From: Gemmatimonadota bacterium
GTDB taxonomy: Bacteria > Gemmatimonadota > Gemmatimonadetes > Gemmatimonadales > GWC2-71-9
Assembly (NCBI GenBank): GCA_003221005.1
Contig: QHTZ01000059.1
Coordinates: 1 to 15,861 of the forward strand
Direction of reading: 5' to 3'
Length of the DNA stretch: 15,861 bases
The notes below the pieces were generated by a model. That model searched no databases and was not told the DNA's origin. It saw only the letters and a list, made by a program, of their open reading frames with translations. Below are positions 1,213 through 15,641 of the stretch, in pieces; within the stretch, counting starts at the first letter, position 1; every line of letters starts with the position of its first letter. Made by a program: the position numbers and the translations under genes.

Positions 1213-1253
1213 AGACGCCGAGCTCCCGACCCGGGAGCTCGGCGTCTTGCTTT
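1213..1253 (+). terminator. Perfect 16-bp hairpin with a short T-rich tail (terminator or attenuator)
   Basis: AGACGCCGAGCTCCCG-ACC-CGGGAGCTCGGCGTCT (1213-1247) followed by TGCTTT. Confidence 0.65.
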
Positions 1254-1264
1254 GGGGGGACCCA

Positions 1265-1768
1265 GTGCAGCTCGGTTCGCAGCTCTTCTCGATCGCCTTC
1301 GCGACGCTTCTCACCGCTGCAGGCCCGCTGTCGGCCCAGACGCTGGGATCGCCCGCGCCCGACTTCACCTTGAAGACGCTCGCCGGCGTCCGCGCGACCC
1401 TCGCCGACTATGCCGGGCGCCCTGTGTTCATCAACTTCTGGGCCTCCTGGTGCACGCCCTGTCGCGGGGAGATGTCCGACATCATCGCCGCGTACAACCT
1501 GCACCGGGATCAGCGACTGCAGGTGCTGGCGATCAACCTGACCGATCAGGAGCACATGAGCGACGTGCGAAGATTCGTGGACGAGTTCCAGATACCGTTC
1601 CCGGTGCTACTCGACCAGAGCGGGAAGGCCCGCAAGAGCTACGCGCTCCGCGGCGTGCCGACCTCGGTGTTCATCGATGCGCAGGGCATCGTGCGCCTTG
1701 TCAATCCCGGTCCCATCACGACGGCGACCATCCAGCGCGGGCTCGCTGCGATCCTACCCACGCCATAG
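1265..1768 (+). CDS. TlpA/ResA-family periplasmic thioredoxin-like disulfide reductase (167 aa)
   Basis: APDFTL, INFWASWCTPC (CxxC) and GVPTSVFID motifs; N-terminal signal peptide (...AGPLSA/Q). GTG 1265 follows a GGGGGA RBS-like sequence and is preferred over TTG 1247. Confidence 0.9.
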   Translation: MQLGSQLFSIAFATLLTAAGPLSAQTLGSPAPDFTLKTLAGVRATLADYAGRPVFINFWASWCTPCRGEMSDIIAAYNLHRDQRLQVLAINLTDQEHMSDVRRFVDEFQIPFPVLLDQSGKARKSYALRGVPTSVFIDAQGIVRLVNPGPITTATIQRGLAAILPTP

Positions 1769-1798
1769 CGAATCAAACACCGAACGGAGGACCTTTCC

Positions 1799-2893
1799 AT
1801 GTCGCTACCATCATTCGCCGTCTCAGTTCGCCGCCCGGCGGTCGTGCTCGCGATCGGCATCGGCCTCCTCGCGCTGCCACGGCAGTCGTTCGCCCAGGGC
1901 TGACCCCCGATCCGATTCACAACCCCCAGTTTGGGGGGACAAGGCGAATCCAAGCTGACCGATCTCGGGGCCCACGAATGGCGGGTCGCGGTCGGCTACC
2001 GCTATCTCCATGGAAATCAGTTTTTCCTGGGCGATCAAGTCAACAACAGCTTCGCCCCGTTCGGCGCCCCGATCATCTACCACATCCATTCGGCGGACGT
2101 CACCGTGACGTATGCCGCGACCGATCGATTCAGCCTGAACTTGACGGTTCCCGTGTTGGACGGAACGCAGTCCGCCGTTCGGGCCGACACTGTTCGCCAC
2201 GACGCCCACGCCGTTGGGCTCGGCGACATCAGTCTCGTCGGCAGCGCATGGTTGTTGAACCCCCGGACACATGCCAAAGGGAATGTCGCGCTCGGTCTCG
2301 GCGTGAAGGCGCCTACGGGGAGCAACAGGTACGCCGATAGCTTGTTCCGAGCCGATGGAAGCTGGATACAGTACCCGGTGGACCAATCGATCCAGCCTGG
2401 CGACGGCGGCTGGGGTGTCATCCTGCAGATGCAGGCCTTTCGACGATTGTTCGCCGGGGCCGTCGCCTACCTGGCAGGGGCCTACCTCGTCAGCCCGCGC
2501 GCGCTTAGCGACGTATCGAGGCCGGCGCCGAATAGTTCCGTCTACTGGTCTGTGCCGGACGTGTATTCAGCTCGCGTGGGGCTGATGTACTTGCTGTTGC
2601 CAACGCACGGCTTGTCCGTGAGCCTCGGCGGACGCATCGATGGCATTCCGTACCACGATCTCGTGGGCGGCGGCGACGCGGGCTTCCGGCGGCCCGGGCA
2701 CGTCGTGTTCCTGGATCCGGCCGTAGCGCTTACCCGGGGCAGGAGCACGTTCACCGTGAGCAGTCCGATCAGAGTGAGCGGGAGCTTGGCGGACAGTGCG
2801 ATGGTGCGGCCCAACGGGGTTCCGAGCCCCACGCGCTCCGCTGGCGACCTCGCCCGGATGCTGATCTTCGTGGGCTATTCGCGGCGGTTCTGA
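1799..2893 (+). CDS. Outer-membrane beta-barrel 'transporter' (Phenol_MetA_deg/SphA-like); 364 aa if the in-frame TGA at codon 35 is recoded, candidate selenoprotein
   Basis: GGAGG RBS at 1786-1790 and ATG 1799. Translation: MSLPSFAVSVRRPAVVLAIGIGLLALPRQSFA/QG-TGA(1901-1903)-PPIRFTTPSLGGQGE..., in frame with the 1931..2893 ORF. Amphipathic beta-strands, motifs GLGD, GVKAPTG, DQSIQPGDGGWG, SVPD, GFRRPG, and a C-terminal beta-signal YSRRF. Confidence 0.8.
1904..1938 (+). promoter_or_regulatory. Candidate bacterial SECIS element
   Basis: Stem-loop CCCCCA-GTT-TGGGGG (1923-1937). The loop G (1929, followed by U) lies after a 25-nt spacer from the TGA, which fits the general bacterial SECIS model: a small apical loop with G in the first positions, a short distance 3' of UGA. 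Confidence 0.55.
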
Positions 2894-2964: not shown

Positions 2965-4080
2965 TCATGCGCCGCGTTCGCACTGCGGGGCAACCGGATC
3001 GCCGTCCTCACCTTGGTCTTCTCCCGGCTCGTCTCCCGCTATGTCGGGCGGCCGCGGCGTGAAGACCTCCACCGAGTTGAGCGCGCTCGTGCCATCGAAG
3101 CCGCCGATGGCAAAGATCGTTCCGGCTCGCCCCACCGCCGCGGCGAGCGCTCCGCGGGGCGTGGCCAGCGGAGCCACGGGCGACCAAGTATCCGGCGAAG
3201 GATCGTACGCTTCCACTGCAGTCAATTCCTGGGTACCGGGAAATCCGACCGAGCCAACCGTGCCGCCCAGAGCGTAGATAATCCCACCTCGACCGAGCAC
3301 GGCGTCCAGAAATCGGCGCGCGGTCGGCATGCTCGCCACGGGCGTCCAGGTATCGGTGCACGGATCGTATGCGTCCACGGTCGTGACGGTAGTGACGCCG
3401 TTGATGCCGCCGATCGCGTAGATTCGGCCGTCCGGCGCCGTGACGGCTGAGAGCTTGCCCGCTCGAGGAGCAGGCAGCGGGGCGAGGTTGGTCCAGGTGT
3501 CGGTCGCCGGATCGTATGCCTCCACATTGCTGAGCTGCACGTTGCCGTTCGCGAATCCTCCAATGACGTAGATCCTGCCGTCCCGTCCAGTCGTCGCCGC
3601 TCCGCAACAGAGTGCTACCGGCAGCGGTGACACAGCGCTCCAGCTGTCGGTTGCCGGATCGTAGCGCTCGACGACGCTGCGGAACACACCCGCGAGCGCG
3701 CCGCCGATGGCATAGATACGTCCCGGCCGGTCGGTCGCCGCCATCAGGTAGCGGCGGGGCGTCGGCATCGGGGCCACCGGAGACCAGCTGCCGGTCTTCT
3801 GGTGGTATGCTTCCACTGTGGCAACGATGGGCCCCGCAAGACCAATCGAGCCGCCGAGCGCGTAGATGATGCCGTGCTTTCCGGTCGCCGCCGCGAGCCC
3901 GAAACGCGCCGTCGGCATGGACGCCACCGCTGTCCAGGTCCCGGTCGACCGGGCTGTTGCAACAGCGACGTCAGCCCGCGCGCGCGAGGCATTCGGACCA
4001 AGGGGCCCGCCATCGCGGTTACACGCTTGAACCAGCGCAATAGCGAGCGACAACTTCAGGATGCTGCGAAGCGGTTTCAT
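2965..4080 (-). CDS. Kelch-repeat (6-blade beta-propeller) lipoprotein (371 aa)
   Basis: AAAAGGAG RBS before ATG 4080; lipoprotein signal MKPLRSILKLSLAIALVQA/C. Six repeats of PTxR...IY(A/V)(I/L)GG...VE(A/R)YDP.TD.W and an acidic C-terminal tail. Confidence 0.9.
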   Translation of the reverse strand: MKPLRSILKLSLAIALVQACNRDGGPLGPNASRARADVAVATARSTGTWTAVASMPTARFGLAAATGKHGIIYALGGSIGLAGPIVATVEAYHQKTGSWSPVAPMPTPRRYLMAATDRPGRIYAIGGALAGVFRSVVERYDPATDSWSAVSPLPVALCCGAATTGRDGRIYVIGGFANGNVQLSNVEAYDPATDTWTNLAPLPAPRAGKLSAVTAPDGRIYAIGGINGVTTVTTVDAYDPCTDTWTPVASMPTARRFLDAVLGRGGIIYALGGTVGSVGFPGTQELTAVEAYDPSPDTWSPVAPLATPRGALAAAVGRAGTIFAIGGFDGTSALNSVEVFTPRPPDIAGDEPGEDQGEDGDPVAPQCERGA

Positions 4081-4161
4081 GACGCTACTCCTTTTCACAG
4101 GGCCCCTGATCCGCGAACCCATCCCGAGCCGGCGTGATTGCCGCTCGCAGACGTCACGGCT

Positions 4162-4223
4162 ACGTTAGGGCGACCGCACGCTGCGACGCGGCCGTCAGGC
4201 GACTGTGATGGGTCTGTGATGGG
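4162..4223. promoter_or_regulatory. Divergent promoter region 1: four 11-bp-phased repeats plus a leftward -10 element
   Basis: Cores GCGACG 4183, GTCAGG 4194, GTGATG 4205 and GTGATG 4216; CTGTGATGGG is an exact repeat at 4203 and 4214. TAACGT on the minus strand at 4167-4162. Confidence 0.6.
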
Positions 4224-4242
4224 AGCGTTATCAGGTGCCCAT

Positions 4243-6567
4243 GTGATCGAGCTTCGGCTGTTTGGTGGACTCGACCTGCGGCGGAGCGACGGGCGGGAGC
4301 TCGACTCCATCCTCACTCAGCCCAAGCGCATCGCCCTCCTGGCCTTCCTCGCCGCGGCCACTCCGTACCGCCTGCACCGGCGGGACACCCTACTCGGACT
4401 CTTCTGGCCGGAGCTCGACCAGGAACACGCGCGCGCCGCGCTCCGCCAGGCGCTCCACGGTCTGCGACAGGGTCTGGGCGCCGACGTGCTCACCAGCCGT
4501 GGCGATGAGGAAGTGGGCGTCGACGAGCAACGGCTGGGGTGTGACGTTCGCGCTTTCCAGCATGCCTTCGAGGCGAGTGACTGGGGCCACGCGCTCGAGC
4601 TCTACCGGGGCAGTCTGCTCGAAGGCTTCTTCCTCTCGGATTCGCCCGAATTCGAGCGCTGGCTGGAGGATGAGCGAGCGCGGTCGCGGAACCGAGCGTG
4701 CCAGGCCGCGTGGACGGTCGCGCAGCGCGGCAAGGCAGACGGCGATTTCGTGGTCGCCGCACATTGGGCGCGTCGCGCGGCGGCGCTCGTCCCCGGCGAT
4801 GAAGAGACGCTCCGCCGCTTGGTCGCGCTTCTGGACGATCTGGGCGACCGAGTGGGCGCCGTGCAGGTGTACGAAGAATTCGCGCGGCGTGTCGCCGTCG
4901 ACTGGCAGGTAGAGCCGGCCGCGGAGACCAAGGCGTTGATCGCTCTCGTGCGCTCGCGCGAGAGCGCGTCCCAGCCCGCGTTGCGCCCGGCTCCGGCATC
5001 CTTCACGGCGCCTCAGACCGCGGCACAGCCGCCCTCGGCCGTCTCCACCGAGCCGGCGGCACGGCGATTCACGCTACCGGGCAAGCGCTGGGTCGTTGGG
5101 ACCACCGGCCTAGCACTCTTGGCCGCTGTGATGGCGATCCGACACCAGCAAGCCAACGCACGCCTGAGCCGAGCGTCCGTGGGGATCGTCTCATTCGAAA
5201 ACCGCTCGGGGGACACGCTCGACGCGTACCTGGGTGCCGCGCTCACCGAGGACCTCACCCGCTCGCTCAGCGCCGCCCACCTCCTGCGCGTGTTCCGCGT
5301 GCCCCAAGCGCGCCTCGGCCTGGATTACATCCTGACCGGGAGCGTGAGGCACGCGCAGGACACCCTCGACGTCACGGCGCAACTCGAGCGCACCGGCTCC
5401 GGTGAGATCGTGTGGGCGACCCGGCTTGCTCTGCGGAGCCACGGGGCGATTACCGTCCCTCAGACGCTGACAAGTGGCGTTCTCCGCGCGCTGGGGGCCC
5501 CGGCCGGGGCTCCCACCGAGCGCCCCGCGCTGCCCCCCGATCCCGCCGCCTACGACCTGTTCTTGCGGGGCCGATACGAAGCCTCGAGGCGAACCGCACC
5601 CAGCCTCGGCCGAGCGGTGGCACTTTTGTCCGAGTCGATCCGCAGGGACTCCACCTTCGCTCCTGCGTGGGCCGGACTCGCTGCGGTGCTGCACAATGCG
5701 ACCCGGTGGGGTTCCCCGGTCCGCGGCGTCTCGCGAGAGAGTTTGCTGACGCGTGAGATCAGCGCGAGCGACCGTGCGCTCCAGCTGGACAGCACCGGCG
5801 TCGACGCATGGCTGACCCGCGCATCGGCGTCGGAAGACGTGGACCCCACCAGTCGCGGACCCGCGCTGCGAGCGATCCACCGGGCACTGGCCCTCGATTC
5901 GCTCAATGCTGAGGCCTGGGACCAGCTGGCAATGGCGTTTGAGGAGACCGGAAGTCGGGACAGCGCGGGAGCGGCGTGGCACCGGGCGATCGCCTTGGAT
6001 CCGGGATTCGTCCGGGCCAAGGCGTTCCTTGCTATCCACTACTGGTGGTGGCGTGCCTACGACAGCGCGGCCGCGTGGGCGGACAGCGCAGTGGCGACGG
6101 ACCCCCTGTACGGACTCGGGCGGGTCATCGCCGGCCAGGCTGCGCTGTCACGGGGCCGCCGCGACGAGGCGGAATCGCAGCTGGGCGCCGCCCGTCGCTT
6201 GCCCACCGGGCCTGGGAGCAACGGACTTTCGGGATTCGTCTCCCTGGCGGCCGCGGCCGGCGACACCTTTGGCGCACGCAGGCTTGTGGCCGAAGCCGAG
6301 GCCCGCACAGACTTCGCGGCGCCTGATAACCATAGCGCGGTCAACATCGCAGCCGCGTACGCAGTACTCGGCGGCGTCGACCGAGCGTTGGCGTGGCTCG
6401 AGCGCTATCGGCCGGCGCGCGACTTGCACTTCCAACTGCACTTGAGGCTCGACCCGCCACTTGATCCCCTCCGGCGCGAGCCTCGGTTCCAAGCGCTCCT
6501 ACTCAAGGGTCCCTTATTTCGCGCCCCACCGGAGGCTCCGCTCAAAAACGCAGCTGCAACTCGGTGA
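4243..6567 (+). CDS. SARP/BTAD-family transmembrane transcriptional regulator: wHTH-BTAD, TM, short TolB-like domain, TPR; no kinase (about 774 aa)
   Basis: IELRLFG...QPKRIALLAFLA...RRDTLLGLFWPELDQEHARAALRQAL (wHTH); LELYRGSLLEGF...EFERWLEDER (BTAD); Pro/Ala linker; TM WVVGTTGLALLAAVMAI; SVGIVSFENRSGD; DPAAYDLFLRG followed by TPRs. Start GTG 4243 chosen by alignment with the paralog starts MIELR; ATG 4219 is an alternative. Confidence 0.88.
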   Translation: MIELRLFGGLDLRRSDGRELDSILTQPKRIALLAFLAAATPYRLHRRDTLLGLFWPELDQEHARAALRQALHGLRQGLGADVLTSRGDEEVGVDEQRLGCDVRAFQHAFEASDWGHALELYRGSLLEGFFLSDSPEFERWLEDERARSRNRACQAAWTVAQRGKADGDFVVAAHWARRAAALVPGDEETLRRLVALLDDLGDRVGAVQVYEEFARRVAVDWQVEPAAETKALIALVRSRESASQPALRPAPASFTAPQTAAQPPSAVSTEPAARRFTLPGKRWVVGTTGLALLAAVMAIRHQQANARLSRASVGIVSFENRSGDTLDAYLGAALTEDLTRSLSAAHLLRVFRVPQARLGLDYILTGSVRHAQDTLDVTAQLERTGSGEIVWATRLALRSHGAITVPQTLTSGVLRALGAPAGAPTERPALPPDPAAYDLFLRGRYEASRRTAPSLGRAVALLSESIRRDSTFAPAWAGLAAVLHNATRWGSPVRGVSRESLLTREISASDRALQLDSTGVDAWLTRASASEDVDPTSRGPALRAIHRALALDSLNAEAWDQLAMAFEETGSRDSAGAAWHRAIALDPGFVRAKAFLAIHYWWWRAYDSAAAWADSAVATDPLYGLGRVIAGQAALSRGRRDEAESQLGAARRLPTGPGSNGLSGFVSLAAAAGDTFGARRLVAEAEARTDFAAPDNHSAVNIAAAYAVLGGVDRALAWLERYRPARDLHFQLHLRLDPPLDPLRREPRFQALLLKGPLFRAPPEAPLKNAAATR

Positions 6568-6665: not shown

Positions 6666-7949
6666 CTACCGCACCGCCGCCACCGAGCTCCCGGACCGAT
6701 CGACCTCGTTCGCAGATCGAGCGACGTTGCGGCCGAGTTGCGCCCCCGTCTCGACGTCGAACCGGTAGTGAATGCCGGCGTAAATCCGCGCGAGCCCGGC
6801 TTGAGCCACCATCGCGTCCAGGCTATCGGCCTTCGCCGGGAAGAACGCGCTCAGAATCCCGGCGGCCGCGCCGCAGTAGCAGCTGTGCGCCGACGGGTAC
6901 GACGGGTGGTTGGGCAGACCGATCGCGGGGATGAGCGTGATAGCGGGGTCGGCCTGCGGCGGACGAATGAACCAATACGTGAGCTTCGCGTCCCAGCAGC
7001 CGATCGCCGCGTCCATCATCGCCGCGTCGAGCAACGCGAACACGTGCGTCGCTTCGCGCTCGCGCAGCGCGCTCTCCTCGATCCAACCGGTGGCGATCGT
7101 ATTCCACAGACCCCCGGCGCTGCTCGTGCCAGCGCCCCGAGCCCAGAACAGCGAGATGTTCACCTGCTCAGCCGTGCGGGTGTCGGAGATGCCTCGCACC
7201 TCGGCGAGCGCGCTGAGGTACGCGGGCGAACCGAACGCCGGCGGCGGGGCCGGCCGGAACTGATCGGCCGACGTCAGGAAGAACGGGCGCATGCCTGGGA
7301 GCTGGGCGTTGGCAGGCGGCTGAGGCGGCTTCGCACTGCTGAACCACACACCTGGCCCGAGCGGAACCGTGCCGGTCCAGGGCAGATCGAACCCGTCGGT
7401 CTGGGCCCGCGCGATCGCTGCCGCGCCTACCTGCCGGCCCACGGCCTCTCCGCGCACGAAGTCGGGATGCGGCTGGCCCGGTCCCGCCTCCGCTTGCTGC
7501 TGCACTTGGTCCTCAAACAGTTGTGCGTCGGCGGGATCGAAGTAGGCCAACACGACGGCGGACGCGCCCGCGACCGCCCCGCGGTCGGCTTCGAGCCGGC
7601 TGCGACCGCCAGAGCCTAGACCGGTTCCGGCGCTTGCCCGCGTCTCGGACGCGTCCCCGCCGAGGGCGTCCTCGGCGCTCACCACGGCGTCATATTGCGC
7701 GACGCTGAGATAGGCGTACACGCGCGTCGCGCGGGCGGAGTTGCCCGACAGCAGTGTGGACCGCATGATGACGTTGCGCGCTGTCTCCTGCCATGCAGGA
7801 CTCGCGAGCCCTTCGGTAAACGGGACGCCGCTGGCGGCAGCCACGAGGGGCTGCGCGGCGTCAGGGCCGAACAGGCGTTTGTCCGAATCGCAGGCGGAGG
7901 CCACAGCCGCCAGTGCGCAGAAGAGCGTGAGTCTCTCGATCGGTTTCAT
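6666..7949 (-). CDS. Vanadium-dependent haloperoxidase / PAP2-superfamily lipoprotein 1 (427 aa)
   Basis: GGAGG RBS before ATG 7949; lipobox ASA/C. Active-site motifs WDAKLTYWFIRP, PNHPSYPSAH and ARIYAGIHYRFD. The ORF-track start at 8201 overlaps the divergent gene. Confidence 0.88.
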   Translation of the reverse strand: MKPIERLTLFCALAAVASACDSDKRLFGPDAAQPLVAAASGVPFTEGLASPAWQETARNVIMRSTLLSGNSARATRVYAYLSVAQYDAVVSAEDALGGDASETRASAGTGLGSGGRSRLEADRGAVAGASAVVLAYFDPADAQLFEDQVQQQAEAGPGQPHPDFVRGEAVGRQVGAAAIARAQTDGFDLPWTGTVPLGPGVWFSSAKPPQPPANAQLPGMRPFFLTSADQFRPAPPPAFGSPAYLSALAEVRGISDTRTAEQVNISLFWARGAGTSSAGGLWNTIATGWIEESALREREATHVFALLDAAMMDAAIGCWDAKLTYWFIRPPQADPAITLIPAIGLPNHPSYPSAHSCYCGAAAGILSAFFPAKADSLDAMVAQAGLARIYAGIHYRFDVETGAQLGRNVARSANEVDRSGSSVAAVR

Positions 7950-8014
7950 CAGACACCTCCTGTTTGTCGGTCGCCGTCTCGGGATCGACCGGTGACGGCT
8001 CAGTTCGTTGCCAC

Positions 8015-8163
8015 GCCCTTGCTGCCGGGCTAGGTTTCGTTCGCGGAGCCAGTCTAGAGGAGGGGCGTAGCGTCCCTGTGACGCGAGCGTGACGCCGGCC
8101 GTCACGACCCCTAAGGCGTGCGTGGACCTCTGGACGGCGCCGCGTGCGCCACCGAGGCCTCGC
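8015..8163. promoter_or_regulatory. Divergent promoter region 2 with phased repeats
   Basis: GTAGCG 8067, GTGACG 8078, GTGACG 8089, GTCACG 8101 (spacing 11,11,12). The last two form the palindrome CGTGACG-CCGGC-CGTCACG (8088-8106). Candidate leftward -10 AAACCT at 8037-8032. Confidence 0.65.
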
Positions 8164-11100
8164 ATGATCGAGCTCCGCATGCTCGGGAGACTGAGCCTCA
8201 CCGGTGCCGACGGGCGCGAGGTGCGGACTCTCCTCGGACAGCCTCGGCGCTTCGCCCTCCTCGCCTACCTCGCCGCTGCAACACCGCTGGGCTTCCACCG
8301 CCGCGACACCCTGCTGGCGCTGTTCTGGCCCGAGCTCGACCAGGAGCATGCGCGTACCGCACTACGCCAGGCGCTCCGCGTGCTCCGCACGACCCTCGGC
8401 TCGGGCGGCGTAGTCGGCCGCGGCGACGAGGAGGTAAGCCTGGACTTCGGGCAGATCTGGTCGGACGTCACAGCCTTCGAGCGCGCTAGTAGTGCCGGCG
8501 AGTGGCTCGAGGCCATGGACTTGTATCGTGGTCCTCTGCTCGAGGGGTTCTTCATCTCGGGGGCGCCCGACTTCGAGCGCTGGCTCGAGAGCGCGCGCGC
8601 CCGGTTGGAGGAGGCAGCCTCGCGGGCGGCGCGAGCCCTGGTCGAGCAGTGTGAGTCGCAGGGCAATCTCACGACGGCCACGCACTGGGCCCGGCGAGCC
8701 GTGCGGCTGGCGCCGAGTGACGAGACGCTCGTGCGCCGGTTGATCCGTCTGCTGGACCATCACGGCGATCGCGCCGGCGCGCTCGAGGCCTATGAGGCGT
8801 TCGCGCACCAGCTCGCCGAGGACTACGCCGCGCAGCCCGCTGCCGAGACGCAGGCGCTGGTTGCGGCAGTCCGGGCGCGAGCCCAGGCAGCGCCACCGGT
8901 GCCGCTCCCCGCGGTGGACCTGCTGCCACGGCTGCAGGCTGGCGTCGCCGGCCGCTATCGAATCGAGCGCGAGCTGGCCCGCGGGCGAACGGCGACGGTC
9001 TTCGTAGCCCGTGACTTGAAGCACGACCGGCAGGTTGCGCTCAAGGTGCTGCACGCCGAGGTCGCCGCCGCAGTGGGGCCAGCGCGCTTCCTCCGCGAGA
9101 TTCAGTTCGCGGCTCGGCTGCAGCATCCCAACATCGTCGCGCTGCACGACTCCGGCGAGGCGGACGGCCTCTTGTACTTCGTCATGCCGTACGTCGTGGG
9201 CGAGTCCCTCCGGGATCGCCTCGACCGCGAGGCGCAGCTGCCCATCGCTGAGGCGCTGCGCATTGCTGGCGACGTGGCCAACGCACTGGGCTACGCCCAC
9301 GGCCTGGGCGTGATGCACCGGGATATCAAGCCCGAGAACATCCTGCTCGCCGACGGCCGCGCCCTCGTTGCGGACTTCGGGATCGCTCGCGCGATCAGTG
9401 CTGCGGGTAGCGAACGGCTCACTGAAACGGGCATCGCACTCGGCACACCCGCCTACATGAGCCCTGAGCAGGGTTCGGAGGATGGGCAGGTGGACGGCCG
9501 CAGCGACCTGTACGCCTTGGGCTGCGTGGTGTACGAGATGCTGACGGGTGCCCCGCCGTTCAGCGGCCCCACCGCGCAAGCGATCATGGCGCGACACGCC
9601 GTCGATCCCGTGGCTCCCATCCGCACCGTGCGAAATACGGTATCCGAGGAGGTCGAGCGGGCGGTGCTGAAGGCGTTGGCGAAGGTGCCCGCGGATCGCC
9701 ACACCGGTGCGGTCGAGTTCGCGCAAGTCCTGGCTGCGTCGAACCTCGAGCCCCAGGGGGGATGGCGGGGGGGCGGGAGCCGAAAGGCCAAGGTCGCGCT
9801 CGCTGCAGGTCTTCCGGTGGCCGCGGCCGTGGCGCTGTTCATCGGCTTCAATGTTGGCGGCTGGCGAGGCCGCCTCTCGGCCGCGAGCGGCGGGACCTGG
9901 CGCCGTTCCGTCGCTGTGCTGCCGCTCGACAACCTCTCCGGCGACACGACGCAGGACGCGTTCGCCGACGGGATGACGACGGCGCTCATCACTGATCTCG
10001 GGCGCGTGCGGGCCCTCCGAGTCATTTCCAAGCGATCGGTCCTGCCCCTCAAGGCCACGGCGCTCCCCGCGCGCGTCATCGGCGAGTCATTGCATGTCGA
10101 TGCGCTGCTGGAAGGAGGCGTCCAGCGATCGGGAAGTCGCTTCCGGGTCGATTTGGAGTTGCTTGATGCCACGTCAGGGAACCAGCTGTGGGCCGACCGG
10201 TTCGAGGACCTTACGCAGAACCGCTTTGCCATCCAGGACGCGGCGGCGCGCGGTGTGCTCTCGGCCCTGAAACTCCCGGTGACCGCGGCGGAGGCGCAGA
10301 GCCTCCGAACACCACCCACCAACAATCTCGAGGCCTACGATCTTTTCCTGCGGGGCAAGATCCGCGTGCGACACGAGACCCGGGAGGACGACTCCATCGC
10401 GATTGCGCTATTGCAGCGAGCCGTGGCGCTCGATCCGTCGTTCGCCGTTGCCCACGCCTGGTTGGCGCGCGCCTACACGCTGAGGGTCGCCCAGTTCGCG
10501 CCTCGGGACTCAGGGGCCCTGGAGGGAGCCTTCGTGGCCACAGAGAAAGCCCTCCAGCTGAACCCCGATCTCGCGGAGGCCCACTTCGCCCGGGCCAATC
10601 TGATCTGGGGTGCGACCAAACAGTTCGCCCACGAGCGCGCGATCCAGGAAGACCGGCGTGCTGTCGAGCTCAGCCCCAACCTGGACGCCGCGCATCATCA
10701 TCTCGGGCTCGTCTACATGCACATCGGGCTGCTCGACAAGGCGGTCGAGGAGCTGCGCAAGACGCTTGCCATCGACCCCGGCGACTGGATGGCGCAGGAA
10801 CGCATCGGTGAGACCGAGCTGTGGCAGGGGCGATACGAAGAGGCATTCCGGATCTTCCGAGCAGTTCCCCCGGAATACAACCCGACGTTCTGGAACTACG
10901 ACGCGGCGTGGGCGCTCATTCAGCTCGACAGGAACGAGGATGCCTCGGCGCTGATCGAACGTTCCTTACACGACCATCCGGAAGACCGCGGCGGCCTGAT
11001 GACCGGCCTGCGCGCTATCGTGTTCGCCAAGCAGGGCGACGCGCGCCGGGCGGAGGCCGACATCCAGTCGGCCATACAGAAGGGGAAGGGCTTCGTTCAC

Positions 11101-11319
11101 TTTCACCACGCCGCATACAGCATCGCCACGGCATACGCGCGGCTCCGGAAGCCGCGGGCCGCGGTCGAGTGGTTACGCCGAGCGGCGGAGAACGGCTTGC
11201 CGTGCTACCCGCTGTTTGCGAGCGATCGCAATCTCGACAACATCCGCCGCGATCCCGCATTCGTCGCCTTCTTGCGCGAGCAGAAGGCGCAGTGGGAGCG
11301 CTGGCGGGCGACGCTGTGA
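8164..11319 (+). CDS. SARP wHTH-BTAD + Hanks-type Ser/Thr kinase + TM + TolB-like + TPR receptor (1051 aa)
   Basis: MIELRMLG start with GAGG RBS; BTAD motifs; kinase motifs VALK, HRDIKPEN, DFG, GTPAYMSPE, DLYALG; TM VALAAGLPVAAAVALFIGF; SVAVLPLDNLSGD...FADGMT (TolB-like); TPRs. Confidence 0.93.
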   Translation: MIELRMLGRLSLTGADGREVRTLLGQPRRFALLAYLAAATPLGFHRRDTLLALFWPELDQEHARTALRQALRVLRTTLGSGGVVGRGDEEVSLDFGQIWSDVTAFERASSAGEWLEAMDLYRGPLLEGFFISGAPDFERWLESARARLEEAASRAARALVEQCESQGNLTTATHWARRAVRLAPSDETLVRRLIRLLDHHGDRAGALEAYEAFAHQLAEDYAAQPAAETQALVAAVRARAQAAPPVPLPAVDLLPRLQAGVAGRYRIERELARGRTATVFVARDLKHDRQVALKVLHAEVAAAVGPARFLREIQFAARLQHPNIVALHDSGEADGLLYFVMPYVVGESLRDRLDREAQLPIAEALRIAGDVANALGYAHGLGVMHRDIKPENILLADGRALVADFGIARAISAAGSERLTETGIALGTPAYMSPEQGSEDGQVDGRSDLYALGCVVYEMLTGAPPFSGPTAQAIMARHAVDPVAPIRTVRNTVSEEVERAVLKALAKVPADRHTGAVEFAQVLAASNLEPQGGWRGGGSRKAKVALAAGLPVAAAVALFIGFNVGGWRGRLSAASGGTWRRSVAVLPLDNLSGDTTQDAFADGMTTALITDLGRVRALRVISKRSVLPLKATALPARVIGESLHVDALLEGGVQRSGSRFRVDLELLDATSGNQLWADRFEDLTQNRFAIQDAAARGVLSALKLPVTAAEAQSLRTPPTNNLEAYDLFLRGKIRVRHETREDDSIAIALLQRAVALDPSFAVAHAWLARAYTLRVAQFAPRDSGALEGAFVATEKALQLNPDLAEAHFARANLIWGATKQFAHERAIQEDRRAVELSPNLDAAHHHLGLVYMHIGLLDKAVEELRKTLAIDPGDWMAQERIGETELWQGRYEEAFRIFRAVPPEYNPTFWNYDAAWALIQLDRNEDASALIERSLHDHPEDRGGLMTGLRAIVFAKQGDARRAEADIQSAIQKGKGFVHFHHAAYSIATAYARLRKPRAAVEWLRRAAENGLPCYPLFASDRNLDNIRRDPAFVAFLREQKAQWERWRATL

Positions 11320-11371: not shown

Positions 11372-12730
11372 CTATGAACGCCTTCCATGATTAGGCTGCG
11401 CGACGTTCGCCACAACGTAGTTACCGATCGCATCGCCTGTCGCTCGCCCGTCGATGCAGGCTGAGCGGAAGTGAATGCCAATGTAGACTCGGGCGTCGTT
11501 CACCTCTTCGGACGCCCCTGAGAAACTGGTATACGTGCGCAGCACACCGGGGAGGTTGTCCGACGCGGCGGTGAACGTGGCGTTATCACCGAAGGAGGAG
11601 GCGAGCACCGCAGCTGCGGCGCCGCTGCTCGTGCTGTGGCCTGATGGATAGTCCTGATGCGCGGGTGTGTTGTGCATACCCCCTACTAGGCGCAGCGGGA
11701 ACCACTCGGCATCCGCGGTGGTCGCAGGATTGCCGTCGGTGTCAGCCAGGCGAATCGCGGTGACGGGACGCCAGAAGTTGTAATGGAACTTGGCGTCCCA
11801 GGCGGCAATAGTGGCATCGGCCATCGCGATGTTGAGCAGAGCAAACAGGCGGGCGTTTTCCGAGAGGGTCGTGTGACGCTCAGCGGCCATGGATAAGGCG
11901 ATTCGATTCCAGTGGACCACGCCGTTATCATCCCAGAAGAGGGCGATCTGCGTTTGCTCAGCCGTGCGGGTCGAGCTGGTTGCGCTGCCGATTTCTTTGA
12001 CCTCATTGAAGTCTCTAGTGTACTGGTCGCTCGCCAAGTCGGGCGGTCCGGCCGGACGAAACTGCGAAGGGGAAGCCATCGCAAACGGAGTCACACAGGC
12101 CATCTGCGGGAACACGGCCGCACGGAAGTCGGGGGGCGTCGGACGCCACTGCCCCGGGGCCGGCGACGAAGGGAGGGGGATGGGGCACGGAGCATTGAAA
12201 GGAGGGTTCAAGCCGTCAGTGCTGCGCCACGCGAGGATGTCGTTGGCAACTTCCTCTCCCCACTCGATGCCGCGCGCGATGGACTCGCTTTCCTCAAGCT
12301 CTCCGCCGTCAGTAATCGAGGCGAGCGATGCCGACCGCTCGAGATCGAACGTGGCTTTCTGTGATGGGAAGAGGTTTACGAGGGCAACGTAGGCCGCCTG
12401 GATGGCGGCGGCGCGACGCGAGGCCCCCCGTGGCGCATCGGCGCCTACATGGTAGGGGATATACCGGCGCTCAATTCCGTTGACTGCGTCGAAGACGGCC
12501 GCCTGGACGATGGCCAGACGCCGTCCCGTGATCACGGGATTCGTGTTCTCCACCTTAATCGCATTCAGCGTGTTTCGATTCCACTCGGTGACCACGTCCG
12601 GAGACTCCGCAGACTCCGCGAATTCGTCGAATGCCGGCGAACCTGGCCTGACCGGCGTGTCCGGATTGCATGCCAGCACCAGCGCCAAGAGCGCCGCGCC
12701 GACCGTGAGCCTTCCACTGATGCGTCTCAT
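11372..12730 (-). CDS. Vanadium-dependent haloperoxidase / PAP2-superfamily lipoprotein 2 (452 aa)
   Basis: AAAGGAG RBS; lipobox VLA/C; N-terminal helical domain (DVVTEWN...AVFDAVNGI). Motifs WDAKFHYNFWRP, PAHQDYPSGH and ARVYIGIHFRSA. Confidence 0.9.
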   Translation of the reverse strand: MRRISGRLTVGAALLALVLACNPDTPVRPGSPAFDEFAESAESPDVVTEWNRNTLNAIKVENTNPVITGRRLAIVQAAVFDAVNGIERRYIPYHVGADAPRGASRRAAAIQAAYVALVNLFPSQKATFDLERSASLASITDGGELEESESIARGIEWGEEVANDILAWRSTDGLNPPFNAPCPIPLPSSPAPGQWRPTPPDFRAAVFPQMACVTPFAMASPSQFRPAGPPDLASDQYTRDFNEVKEIGSATSSTRTAEQTQIALFWDDNGVVHWNRIALSMAAERHTTLSENARLFALLNIAMADATIAAWDAKFHYNFWRPVTAIRLADTDGNPATTADAEWFPLRLVGGMHNTPAHQDYPSGHSTSSGAAAAVLASSFGDNATFTAASDNLPGVLRTYTSFSGASEEVNDARVYIGIHFRSACIDGRATGDAIGNYVVANVAQPNHGRRS

Positions 12731-12762: not shown

Positions 12763-12911
12763 GCCCCTGCAGCGGGGCTAGGTTTGACTTGCGGAGCCAG
12801 TTTAGGAGAGCCGCGTCACGCCCTTGTGATGCGACCGTCACGCCGGCCGTAACGGCGACCGCGCCTTGCTCGTGAGCCTCCGAACTGCGCCGCATGCCGC
12901 CGAGGCCTCGC
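12763..12911. promoter_or_regulatory. Divergent promoter region 3, homologous to region 2
   Basis: GTCACG 12815, GTGATG 12826, GTCACG 12837, GTAACG 12849 (spacing 11,11,12, as in region 2). GGGCTAGGTTT and GCGGAGCCAGT are conserved; candidate leftward -10 AAACCT at 12785-12780. Confidence 0.65.
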
Positions 12912-15641
12912 ATGATCGAGCTCCGCTTGCTCGGGAGGTTGAGCCTCACGAGCGCCGATGGGCGCGACGTCCGGGCTCTGCTCGGCCAGCCCCGACGCCT
13001 CGCCCTCCTCGCCTACCTCGCCGCCGCGACACCCCCAGGCTTCCACCGCCGTGACAGCCTGTTGGCACTCTTTTGGCCGGAGCTCGACCAGGAGCATGCC
13101 CGCGCCGCGCTGCGCCAGGCCCTACACGTGGTCCGCGACGCGTTGGGCGCCGACGCCGTCGCGAGCCGCGGCGACGAGGAGCTTGGCCTCGACTTCGATC
13201 GGGTCTCGTGTGACGTGGCTGCCTTCGGCCGCGCGATCGACGGCGCGCAGTTCCGAGAGGCCCTCGACGTCTATCGGGGCGATCTGCTGGAGGGATTCTT
13301 CATCGCGGGGGCGCCGGACTTCGAGCGGTGGCTCGAGACCGAGCGCAGTCGGCTGCGGGAGACGGCATCGCGAGCGGCGCGGATGCTGGGGGAGCACTGC
13401 GAAGCCGACGGCAACCTCACCACCGCCGCTCACTGGGCTCGTCGGGCGCTAGACCTCGCCCCGAACGAGGAAGCGCTGTTGCGCCGTCTGATCACCGTAC
13501 TGGACCGGCACGGCGACCGGGCGGGCGCGCTGCAAGCGTACGAGGAGTTCAGGGCGCGGCTCGCCGACGAATACGAAGCTCAGCCGGCACCCGAAACGGA
13601 GGCTTTGGTTGCCGCGGTGCGAGCGCGGGAGCGGGCGCCCGGGTCGCTTCCGCTACCCCCAATGGATCTGCTCGCGCGGCTGCGCGCCGGGCTTGCCGAT
13701 CGCTACCGCGTCGAGCGCGAGCTGGCGCACGGGCGGACTGCGGCGGTTTTCCTCGCCCACGACCTGAAGCACGAGCGCCCGGTGGCGATCAAGGTGCTCC
13801 ACCCCGAGCTCGCGGCCGCCGTGGGCGCCGAGCGCTTCCTCCGCGAGATCCAGCTGGCTGCTCGGCTCCAGCACCCCCACATCGTCGCGCTGCACGACTC
13901 GGGCGAGACGGATGGCCTCCTCTATTTCGTCATGCCCTACGTCGCAGGCGAATCCCTGCGCGCACGCCTCGAGCGCGAGCCGCAACTCCCGATCGCCGAA
14001 GCGATTCGCGTGACGGGCGACGTGGCGCAGGCACTGGGCTACGCCCACGGCCTGGGTGTAGTGCACCGCGACATCAAGCCGGAGAATATTCTGCTCGAAG
14101 ACGGCCACGCCCTCGTGGCGGACTTCGGGATCGCGCGAGCGATCAGCGCCGCCGGCAGCGAGCGGCTCACTGAGACGGGCATGGCGCTCGGCACACCCGC
14201 CTACATGAGTCCGGAGCAGGGGGCGGAAGACGGGCAGGTGGATGGGCGGAGCGATCTCTACGCGCTCGGCTGCGTGGCCTACGAGATGCTGACCGGGACG
14301 CCGCCATTCACCGGGCCCACGGCCCAAGCCATTCTCGCGCGTCACGCCGTGGACCCCGTCGCGCCGATCCGGACGGTGCGGAAGACGGTGCCCCGCGGGG
14401 TCGAGCAGGCCGTGCTGAAGGCCCTGGCCAAAGTGCCGGCGGACCGCTACGCCGGCGCGACGGAGTTTGCGCAGGCGCTGACCCAGCCGGCCCTCGAGCA
14501 AGGGTCGAGCCGGCGCCAATCGAAAAGCCGGGGAGCAAAGCTCGCACTCGGCGCGGGCCTCTCGGCAGCCGCCGCTCTGGCGCTGCTGGTCGGCTTCAGC
14601 CTTGGGGGCGGGCGGGAGCGGCCGCATCCCCGGGCCCCACTCACGAGCAACGCCGAGGCGTACGATTTGTACCTGCGCGCCGACATGCTTCTCACCCAGC
14701 GTCAGAATCGGGAGAACGATTCGGTCGCGATCACCCTGTTCGAGCGCATCGTGGCGCTGGATCCGAGCTTTGCCGCTGCCCAGGCCGGGCTGGCGCGCGC
14801 CTACGCGCTGCGGGTGAGCGAATTCGATCCGGGGGACACGGCGGCCCTTGAACGAGCCCAGGTGGCCGCGGACAAGGCGCTTCGCCTCGACCCGAATCTC
14901 GCGGAGGCACACCTTGCCCAGGCCCGCCTGCTGTGGGGGCCCTCAAACCATTTCTTCCACGAGCGAGCGATCCAGGAAATCCGGCGCGCCCTGAGCCTCG
15001 ACCCGAACATAGGGCACCACAATCTGGGGAACATCTATCTGCATATCGGAATGCTCGACGAAGCGATTGCCGATCTTCAGAAGACGCTCGCGATCTCGCC
15101 CCGCTCGGACAACGCCCTGCGGCGCATCGCGGAGGCACGTGCACACAAAGGGCAATATGAGGAGGCCCTAAGAATCCTGAGCCAGGTAGACCCCGAGGCC
15201 AACCCGCCCTACTGGTACTATCAAATGGCGTTCGTGCTGCTGCACTTGGGGCGGCGCGACTCGGCGTTCGCACTGATACAGAACTACCTGCGGGAGCATC
15301 CTGAAGACCGGGGCGGCGTTGTGACAAGCGCGCGGGCCGTCTGGTTTGCCATGGCCGGGGACGCACCCGGCGCGGAACGAGACATGCAGACCGCTGTCCA
15401 GAAGGGGAAGGGATACATCCACTTCCATCACGCCGGCTACCACATCGCTCTCGCTTACGCGTTGCTCCACCGGCCGGACTCGGCGGTACAGTGGTTGCGT
15501 CGCGTGGCCGATGGCGGGATGCCCTGCTATCCGTGTTTCGCCGGCGAACCCTTCTTGAACGGCATCCGGACGGATCCGGGGTTTGTCGGCTTCATGTCGA
15601 AGCAGAAGGCGCAGTGGGAGCGGTGGCGGGCGACGCTCTGA
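12912..15641 (+). CDS. SARP wHTH-BTAD + Ser/Thr kinase + TM + TPR receptor lacking the TolB-like domain (909 aa)
   Basis: MIELRLLG start; BTAD; VAIK, HRDIKPEN, DFG, GTPAYMSPE; TM LALGAGLSAAAALALLVGF followed almost directly by TSNAEAYDLYLR and TPRs. Confidence 0.92.
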   Translation: MIELRLLGRLSLTSADGRDVRALLGQPRRLALLAYLAAATPPGFHRRDSLLALFWPELDQEHARAALRQALHVVRDALGADAVASRGDEELGLDFDRVSCDVAAFGRAIDGAQFREALDVYRGDLLEGFFIAGAPDFERWLETERSRLRETASRAARMLGEHCEADGNLTTAAHWARRALDLAPNEEALLRRLITVLDRHGDRAGALQAYEEFRARLADEYEAQPAPETEALVAAVRARERAPGSLPLPPMDLLARLRAGLADRYRVERELAHGRTAAVFLAHDLKHERPVAIKVLHPELAAAVGAERFLREIQLAARLQHPHIVALHDSGETDGLLYFVMPYVAGESLRARLEREPQLPIAEAIRVTGDVAQALGYAHGLGVVHRDIKPENILLEDGHALVADFGIARAISAAGSERLTETGMALGTPAYMSPEQGAEDGQVDGRSDLYALGCVAYEMLTGTPPFTGPTAQAILARHAVDPVAPIRTVRKTVPRGVEQAVLKALAKVPADRYAGATEFAQALTQPALEQGSSRRQSKSRGAKLALGAGLSAAAALALLVGFSLGGGRERPHPRAPLTSNAEAYDLYLRADMLLTQRQNRENDSVAITLFERIVALDPSFAAAQAGLARAYALRVSEFDPGDTAALERAQVAADKALRLDPNLAEAHLAQARLLWGPSNHFFHERAIQEIRRALSLDPNIGHHNLGNIYLHIGMLDEAIADLQKTLAISPRSDNALRRIAEARAHKGQYEEALRILSQVDPEANPPYWYYQMAFVLLHLGRRDSAFALIQNYLREHPEDRGGVVTSARAVWFAMAGDAPGAERDMQTAVQKGKGYIHFHHAGYHIALAYALLHRPDSAVQWLRRVADGGMPCYPCFAGEPFLNGIRTDPGFVGFMSKQKAQWERWRATL

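Follow-up and report, generated by a model that had tools for sequence, protein, structure and literature searches.

The locus examined here raises the question of whether an in-frame UGA codon near the start of a gene for a predicted outer-membrane beta-barrel (positions 1799–2893) terminates translation or is decoded as selenocysteine (Sec). The gene lies in a window of 15,861 nucleotides (nt), the whole stretch of DNA that was analysed, which is an entire contig (C47) of a Gemmatimonadota genome assembly of 2.79 Mb in 141 contigs (completeness rated 93.9%). Comparison with relatives makes it very likely that UGA 1901–1903 specifies Sec in a real outer-membrane barrel. From ATG 1799 the frame reads MSLPSFAVSVRRPAVVLAIGIGLLALPRQSFA-QG, meets TGA at 1901–1903 and then continues through 329 sense codons (1904–2890) to ...GYSRRF and TGA 2891–2893. 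Translation of 1799–2893 gave a read-through precursor of 364 residues, broken by this single internal stop and containing no Cys codons. A Sec here would occupy position 35 of the precursor and, should signal peptidase I cleave after SFA, position 3 of the mature protein. A first-pass annotation of the window had described a ribosome-binding site, an ATG at 1799, a signal peptide ending SFA/QG, the TGA, the 329 codons and the terminal YSRRF, and all were found where it had placed them. Its remark that the protein has no Cys also held, apart from the TGA position itself, as did its statement that the open reading frame (ORF) track begins at TTG 1931; the mechanical ORF list starts the gene there, with 320 amino acids, and inspection by eye revealed no purine-rich Shine–Dalgarno sequence upstream of this TTG. 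The gene has the following features.

1786–1791, plus strand: Shine–Dalgarno sequence GGAGGA, 7 nt upstream of ATG 1799 (read from the sequence).
1799–1894, plus strand: signal peptide of 32 residues ending in SFA (translation; signal peptidase I site predicted).
1895–1918, plus strand: mature N-terminal motif Q-G-U-P-P-I-R-F (alignments of relatives).
1901–1903, plus strand: in-frame TGA, very likely read as Sec (TGA/Cys column in relatives).
1923–1937, plus strand: hairpin resembling a bacterial selenocysteine insertion sequence (SECIS), stem CCCCCA/UGGGGG, loop GUU (conservation in TGA forms).
1979–2890, plus strand: predicted beta-barrel domain, precursor residues ~61–364, C-terminal YSRRF (AlphaFold2 models, Foldseek).
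2891–2893, plus strand: the gene's true stop codon, likewise TGA (translation).

The residue occupying the UGA column in relatives was determined in two samples. For the first, the read-through protein (P0001) was compared with six-frame translations of 61 related genomes and 401 genomes of the phylum. Matches were obtained in 4 of the 61 and 21 of the 401, the latter distributed as 17 of 165 genomes in the organism's own family, 3 of 94 in a second family and none in ten others. The aligned column held TGA in 14 cases and TGC or TGT in 11, and two further matches were fragments without an N-terminus. The second sample came from a profile scan in which each GTDB species was represented by one genome; it revealed at least 554 relatives, of which the best 80 loci were analysed. 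These came mainly from soil Gemmatimonadota metagenome-assembled genomes (MAGs), together with Acidobacteriota (Terriglobia, Thermoanaerobaculia) and one bin labelled Chloroflexi. The two samples share species genomes and their counts are not additive. Among the best 80 loci the column was TGA in 42, TGC in 31 and TGT in 6, with one fragment, and neither TAA, TAG nor any non-Cys residue, Trp and Arg included, occurred among the 79 informative loci. All 37 Cys forms read [A/G]QGC at this point, in agreement with the remark in the first-pass annotation that such barrels often begin AQGC.

The surroundings of the column are conserved as well. In every case, in both samples, a signal peptide and the QG dipeptide lie in frame upstream of the TGA or Cys codon, and TGA is retained in relatives down to ~42% protein identity, across two phyla. 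All 73 aligned mature sequences keep the Q, G, C/U, P and R of QG[U/C]xPxR unchanged, and none has a second Cys; R is replaced by H in two further loci, both Cys forms (L041 and L128). On a tree of the 73 rows (first 12 residues left out, midpoint root) the Sec/Cys label changes at least three times, two of the changes being forced by starred branches, and TGA forms stand on both sides of the midpoint root, the deepest split, with paths of more than one change per site between them. As judged from the alignments, the pattern in this column is that of a Sec/Cys family, unlike that of a recent nonsense mutation or an assembly error. Parts of the window are contained in 20 soil sequencing runs from 14 studies; the 40 (of 87) difference rows listed for contigs of two soil metagenome runs, which come from separate studies, show no alternative letter at 1901–1903, and this speaks against the sequencing error that the first-pass annotation had named as a way in which its proposal might fail.

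Several relatives stand out on other grounds. L075, a TGA form, and L042/L049 (G158:C4) are each split over two frames, and a Cys-form copy, L045 (G264:C33), is truncated by TAA; all of these may be pseudogenes or assembly errors. L056, the TGA form in the bin labelled Chloroflexi, has the gene order of the Gemmatimonadota loci and its barrel groups with theirs on the tree, and its placement is probably a binning error rather than a gene transfer.

A cell that decodes UGA as Sec would use a dedicated machinery, and the genes that the first-pass annotation had proposed looking for were found in the genome of the window: tRNA-Sec (82.5 bits; reported by ARAGORN as SeC, anticodon tca), selA (532.6 bits), selB (310.7 bits) and selD (376.9 bits). 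Among the 21 other genomes with a barrel gene, those with a TGA form had selA as well as tRNA-Sec without exception (12 of 12). The nine genomes with Cys forms only had selA in six cases and tRNA-Sec in five, and G088, G313 and G405, which have neither selA nor tRNA-Sec, all carry Cys forms. The selD gene of the window's genome (G000:C46:14499–15422, minus strand; locus L018) has a single in-frame TGA, in ...LSHGAG*ACKLGP..., and so is itself a selenoprotein gene, as selD is in many bacteria. Two hairpins follow the selD TGA, the second of which is GGCGCA-GGUCU-UGCGCC, with its loop at nt 36–40. The selD and barrel genes share the RGUYU loop type within one cell.

A SECIS-like hairpin downstream of the barrel UGA had been noted in the first-pass annotation; it is present at 1923–1937 and conserved in relatives with compensatory changes. 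In the window its stem pairs 1923–1928 with 1932–1937 around a GUU loop (1929–1931), beginning ~22 nt past the UGA. A hairpin at a fixed distance was found in all TGA forms, 14 of 14 in the first sample and 42 of 42 in the second, and in all 42 the distance is suitable and the apical loop, of the RGUYU type, contains the G(U) that is generally expected of a SECIS element. With nt 1 defined as the U of UGA, the loop-side AGU has its A at nt 28 in 11 loci, the window among them, and at nt 25 in three. The upper stem CCCA/UGGG and the loop GUY were constant in the first 14 TGA forms. Compensatory changes were seen in the lower stem, where one pair is AU in three sequences, CG in three, GC in one, GU in one and UA in one, and four unpaired rows use a one-base bulge. 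Over these 14 sequences 80.8% of cells paired, compared with 73.9% in shuffles (reached by 0 of 500) and 32–57% in slid controls, and the covariation score was 0.176 compared with 0.094 (again reached by 0 of 500 shuffles), with the caveat that related sequences may beat shuffles without any structure. Several TGA forms, mostly from Acidobacteriota, carry CCCGGUCUGGG, in which the loop is GGUCU. Of 42 Sec forms, 31 contain the string CAGUYUG, compared with 1 of 36 Cys forms. The Sec forms also keep rare codons frozen (Ser as AGU, Leu as UUG or CUG), which argues for RNA-level constraint. An Rfam scan of 1780–2080 returned nothing relevant.

The element resembles the classical signals of fdhF and selD, in which a UGA is read with the help of a SelB-bound SECIS, in lying ~22 nt past the UGA, in its G-U apical loop and in having Cys orthologs. 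It differs from them in its short stem (6 bp in the window, at most 8 bp elsewhere, or 4+4 with a bulge) and in a loop of down to 3 nt; in addition, it overlaps a conserved peptide, which leaves the protein and RNA constraints not fully separable.

AlphaFold2 predicted a beta-barrel both for the precursor (32 rows; predicted local distance difference test score, pLDDT, 79.6) and for the mature chain (73 rows; pLDDT 87.8, predicted template modelling score 0.86), with the barrel blocks at ~90. A Foldseek search of the PDB with the model placed FapF first (E 2.4e-15) and the COG4313 channel Pput2725 (4rl8) next (E 1.6e-12), both ahead of FadL-type channels, autotransporter barrels and OmpG. In these models, then, the barrel groups structurally with the FapF/COG4313 outer-membrane channels. 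At the sequence level the searches set the family apart from known ones: the window protein reaches no Pfam family threshold, PF13557 gives weak matches in 6 of 73 family members (best E 5.7e-5), and the sole match in NCBIfam release 20.0 at E <= 1 is FapF NF058560, with 17.6 bits against a cut-off of 700. In the nearest ESM Atlas clusters, PF13557 is found in 10–18% of members.

Pput2725 of Pseudomonas putida F1, of the COG4313/Phenol_MetA_deg group (PF13557), aligns with a TM-score of 0.76 on the target, and the number of 12 strands is taken from its structure, 4rl8. In Pput2725, ~14 residues before strand 1 fold into the 12-stranded barrel's lumen and are functionally important (PMC4493636). 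The N-terminal segment of the window protein is longer and bears the invariant QG[U/C]xPxRF, while the word 'cysteine' is absent from the main text of the COG4313 structure paper (PMC4493636). FapF, the Pseudomonas amyloid-subunit transporter (5o65, 5o67), aligns with a TM-score of 0.73–0.76 on the target; it too is a 12-stranded barrel, with a plug that closes the periplasmic side (PMC5557850). In both proteins, the segment before strand 1 is described as closing the lumen from the periplasmic side (PMC4493636, PMC5557850). Unlike FapF, the window protein has no coiled-coil N-terminal domain, identity in the FapF rows is 12–15%, and there are no fap genes in the window, where the neighbours are redoxin, Kelch, TPR/BTAD/kinase and PAP2 proteins.

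An outer-membrane selenoprotein has precedent, since the GSU2204 family/MtrB-PioB barrel (NF041027) and the FCYXU TonB-dependent receptor (NF049945) are both listed as Sec-containing (PMC13188914). These are separate families from the one described here, and neither NCBIfam model matches P0001 at E <= 1. They also carry Sec in other motifs (CxxU in the receptor), whereas here it would be mature residue 3, with no Cys nearby.

Taken with the Cys-only alternatives, the retained TGA, the Sec machinery and the conserved hairpin, which all support the proposal of the first-pass annotation that UGA encodes Sec, these data point to a fuller account. It is likely, if a little less so than Sec at this codon as such, that the gene specifies a 364-residue outer-membrane barrel precursor in which UGA 1901–1903 is decoded as Sec by the genome's own SelB/tRNA-Sec system, guided by the hairpin at 1923–1937.

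Several points weigh against this account. Comparison establishes the Sec/Cys column, the conserved hairpin, the Sec machinery and the barrel fold, and the case for selenium in the barrel protein is comparative throughout. The selB match is partial, covering model positions 2–338 on a 2670-nt contig. RNA-library contigs identical to 2560–2790 (X19) and 2263–2413 (X20) were found, with DNA carry-over possible, and no matching RNA-library contig spans the UGA, so that they do not demonstrate transcription of the whole gene or read-through. The 81-nt stretch 1895–1975, folded alone, was no more stable than shuffles (z = -0.20); the hairpin of the window counts as evidence because it is conserved, not because of the stability of the whole stretch. 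It also lies over the codons of the conserved TPSLGG peptide, and since Pro and Gly codons are inherently complementary, some of the structure follows from the protein sequence itself. Cys forms fold other hairpins in the same place, and the gap between the mean energies is small (-11.35 versus -10.02 kcal/mol; p = 0.006, uncorrected for relatedness). The SECIS spacing and loop rule (G(U) in the apical loop) used for the comparison was taken from general knowledge. Finally, the N-terminal ~20 residues of the mature protein were unplaced in both models (pLDDT 44–52), and a plug or contact formed by them stays an analogy.

What the residue might do is suggested by its position and by its genetic surroundings. 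The signal peptide is probably cleaved after SFA, giving a mature N-terminus Q-G-Sec-x-P-x-R-F, which in the alignments is where the family is best conserved and which contains its sole Cys/Sec. The motif QG[U/C]xPxRF was considered as a generic sorting signal and rejected, as it has a single occurrence in the genome of the window. Directly upstream of the barrel gene lies a gene for a redoxin.

1247–1768, plus strand: secreted TlpA/ResA-like thiol–disulfide oxidoreductase, WASWCTPC (start codon uncertain; ends 30 nt before the barrel ATG).

Its product matched Pfam AhpC-TSA (95.4 bits) and Redoxin (80.7 bits), both above the cut-offs, and NCBIfam ResA with 113.9 bits, under the cut-off of 170; the active site is of the WCxxC type, and W, W, C and C do not vary across 42 homologs. 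A redoxin homolog adjoins the barrel gene in 18 of 24 places and at 46 of 78 loci of the second sample, whether it lies upstream, downstream or in divergent orientation. This frequent TlpA-like neighbour fits a thiol/selenol redox role of the barrel Cys/Sec. A lone selenol or thiol would stand on a flexible, periplasm-facing N-terminal segment and could be redox-active or nucleophilic, forming a selenylsulfide with a partner or substrate, or binding soft metal. The adjacent secreted CxxC oxidoreductase may serve the selenol in many members, being the obvious candidate partner where present, and the chemistry of the selenol would gate the channel or capture passing material; the metal or thiol capture, or gating, suggested in the first-pass annotation is speculative. 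This mechanism, with the adjacent redoxin as redox partner, is less likely than not and is offered tentatively, and the distribution of the redoxin counts against it: a redoxin gene was found within 2.5 kb in 14 of 42 Sec-form loci, compared with 32 of 36 Cys-form loci (L128, a Cys form outside the 36 counted, also has an adjacent redoxin). The idea of the redoxin as an obligate partner of Sec forms is weakened by the count of 14 in 42.

More common beside the barrel gene is a TPR protein of 600–840 residues with a Ser/Thr kinase or BTAD/Trans_reg_C domain, found at 72 of 81 loci (crude clustering; Pfam on five representatives). The ORF clustering behind such counts was crude, as high-GC DNA yields many spurious antisense ORFs; it was used only for redoxin, kinase/TPR and PAP2 genes, with Pfam run on ten chosen ORFs. 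A broader proposal, in which the N-terminal selenol or thiol is a working residue of the envelope, cycled by the TlpA-like reductase and linked genetically to signalling by the kinase/TPR or BTAD/TPR neighbours, we regard as speculative and rather unlikely in its entirety.

Among alternatives, the one that survives best accepts a real selenoprotein and differs as to function: the Sec/Cys would be no partner of the redoxin, and would instead bind a soft metal or chalcogen (Cu, Hg or Se species) or tether the barrel permanently to an envelope protein. The residue is alone, with no resolving Cys; 28 of the 42 Sec-form loci lack a redoxin gene within 2.5 kb; and the more constant neighbours are the kinase–TPR or BTAD/Trans_reg_C–TPR proteins of those 72 crudely clustered loci, together with PAP2-type proteins at eight. 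In addition, TlpA-type proteins are known to prepare copper-binding cysteines. Yet no metal-handling gene is conserved beside the barrel gene, and the presence of a redoxin at 32 of 36 Cys-form loci, in three arrangements, argues for a thiol-redox link at least there. We consider metal binding or tethering possible but somewhat unlikely.

Far less probable is a second alternative, that the Cys/Sec is the +1 residue of a lipoprotein, exposed by signal peptidase II and lipidated, so that the TGA forms would be seleno-lipoproteins. The residue does lie a few positions past the signal peptide, preceded by Gly, and is the protein's only Cys, all of which would suit a lipoprotein. However, the lipobox as commonly given, [LVI][ASTVI][GAS]C, occurs in no aligned row, position -3 being A or G and -2 always Q, and a polar stretch with R or K (PRQSF in the window) separates the hydrophobic core from the site. 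By eye, the small residues at -3 and -1 (S-F-A, A-x-A) suit cleavage by signal peptidase I before QG, and the invariant Q and G are better explained as residues of the mature motif.

It is also most improbable that the TGA is a true stop, arising by nonsense mutation, pseudogene formation or sequencing error, with the barrel made from TTG 1931 without a signal peptide or not made at all. This is how gene callers read the locus: of the 120 nearest database proteins, 106 start past the column, and the 14 full-length ones have Cys. TGA also serves as the gene's own terminator, and a few relatives look damaged (L075 and L042/L049 by frameshifts, L045 by its TAA). Against a stop, the codon is always TGA and always in one column, in 42 species genomes and two phyla, and TGA forms are spread over the tree's deep branches. 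What precedes the TGA (the 32-residue signal peptide and QG) and what separates it from the TTG (xPxRF) are both conserved in frame, and without a signal peptide no barrel could be delivered to the outer membrane. Wherever TGA forms occur, the genome has both selA and tRNA-Sec (the 12 of 12 above), and the two metagenome runs give no other letter at the codon in the difference rows listed.

Finally, that UGA is read as Trp, Cys or Gly by near-cognate suppression or in a reassigned code can be set aside as equally improbable: UGA is the leakiest stop codon, but the gene itself ends in TGA and neighbouring ORFs end normally under table 11, so the code is not reassigned, while the non-TGA forms hold only Cys in the column, a conserved hairpin with a selD-type loop follows the codon, and TGA forms are restricted to Sec-capable genomes.

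The window and the related loci contain further genes of interest. Large TPR proteins cluster in the window, at 56–1144, 4138–6567, 8089–11319 and 12894–15641, all on the plus strand; three have a BTAD domain, and two of those also have a Ser/Thr kinase domain. The whole genome has ~8 BTAD proteins, counting these three; its 10 matches fall in 9 places, and one of them scores below the cut-off. Two genes of the PAP2 superfamily lie on the minus strand, at 6666–8201 and 11372–12730, the latter weakly similar to vanadium chloroperoxidase domains, and PAP2 genes are also found near the barrel gene at eight other loci. A six-blade Kelch propeller gene (2965–4122, minus strand) is convergent with the barrel gene; as a conserved partner of the barrel it was rejected, with one tblastn match among 80 other loci. 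Between the two convergent genes, at ~2920–2953, a long GC-rich inverted repeat, GAGGCGTCGAAGCT...AGCTTCGACGCCTC, resembles by eye a two-way terminator. At several Sec-form loci without a redoxin, a small secreted protein is encoded directly upstream of the barrel gene (L093:1706–2365, L105:1779–2381, L118:1607–2332 and L066:1999–2466, all plus strand). These proteins have conserved Cys residues in ...CTGTxWLTLG... and ...CYxF..., the four ORFs (clusters c5 and c6) gave no Pfam match, and the small protein may be an alternative partner of the barrel.

The barrel is very probably a genuine new selenoprotein family, with ordinary Sec insertion in an unusual place, in an uncharacterised family of outer-membrane barrels. 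A 2026 catalogue of prokaryotic selenoproteins has 119 families or subfamilies in its Table 1 (PMC13188914). The barrel family was not found among these 119, no entry being described as COG4313-, FapF- or Phenol_MetA_deg-like, and the words Gemmatimonad, Acidobacteri and soil are absent from the text of the catalogue (PMC13188914). Most of the catalogue families, unnamed hypothetical ones included, have NCBIfam models, none of which matches P0001. Full-text literature searches returned nothing on the present barrel family, with the limit that supplementary tables of large selenoproteome screens may list it, and no selenoprotein survey of Gemmatimonadota, Acidobacteriota or soil.

The family is apparently absent from selenoprotein lists because gene finders truncate it at the UGA. 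The 14 full-length proteins among the 120 nearest in the database have QGC, and the others start directly past the column (36), ten residues later (62) or further in (8). Public gene calls are thus systematically wrong for this family, with 106 of 120 lacking the signal peptide and the conserved motif, and, as callers stop at the UGA, the barrel passes for a cytoplasmic 'hypothetical protein' in many soil MAGs. With it, the catalogue of selenoproteins would gain a family common in two abundant soil phyla.

Most known selenoproteins are cytoplasmic redox enzymes of the thioredoxin fold, with UxxC or CxxU motifs. A secreted barrel whose only Sec is its third residue, and for which natural Cys forms and a neighbouring candidate partner gene exist, would provide a tractable system for studying the use of selenium outside the cytoplasm. 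If the N-terminal selenol is indeed a working residue, the barrel would form part of a system in the cell envelope that transports or senses by redox gating or covalent capture. Mostly aerobic soil bacteria would then use selenium chemistry at their outer membrane, in a way unlike that of any selenoprotein characterised so far.

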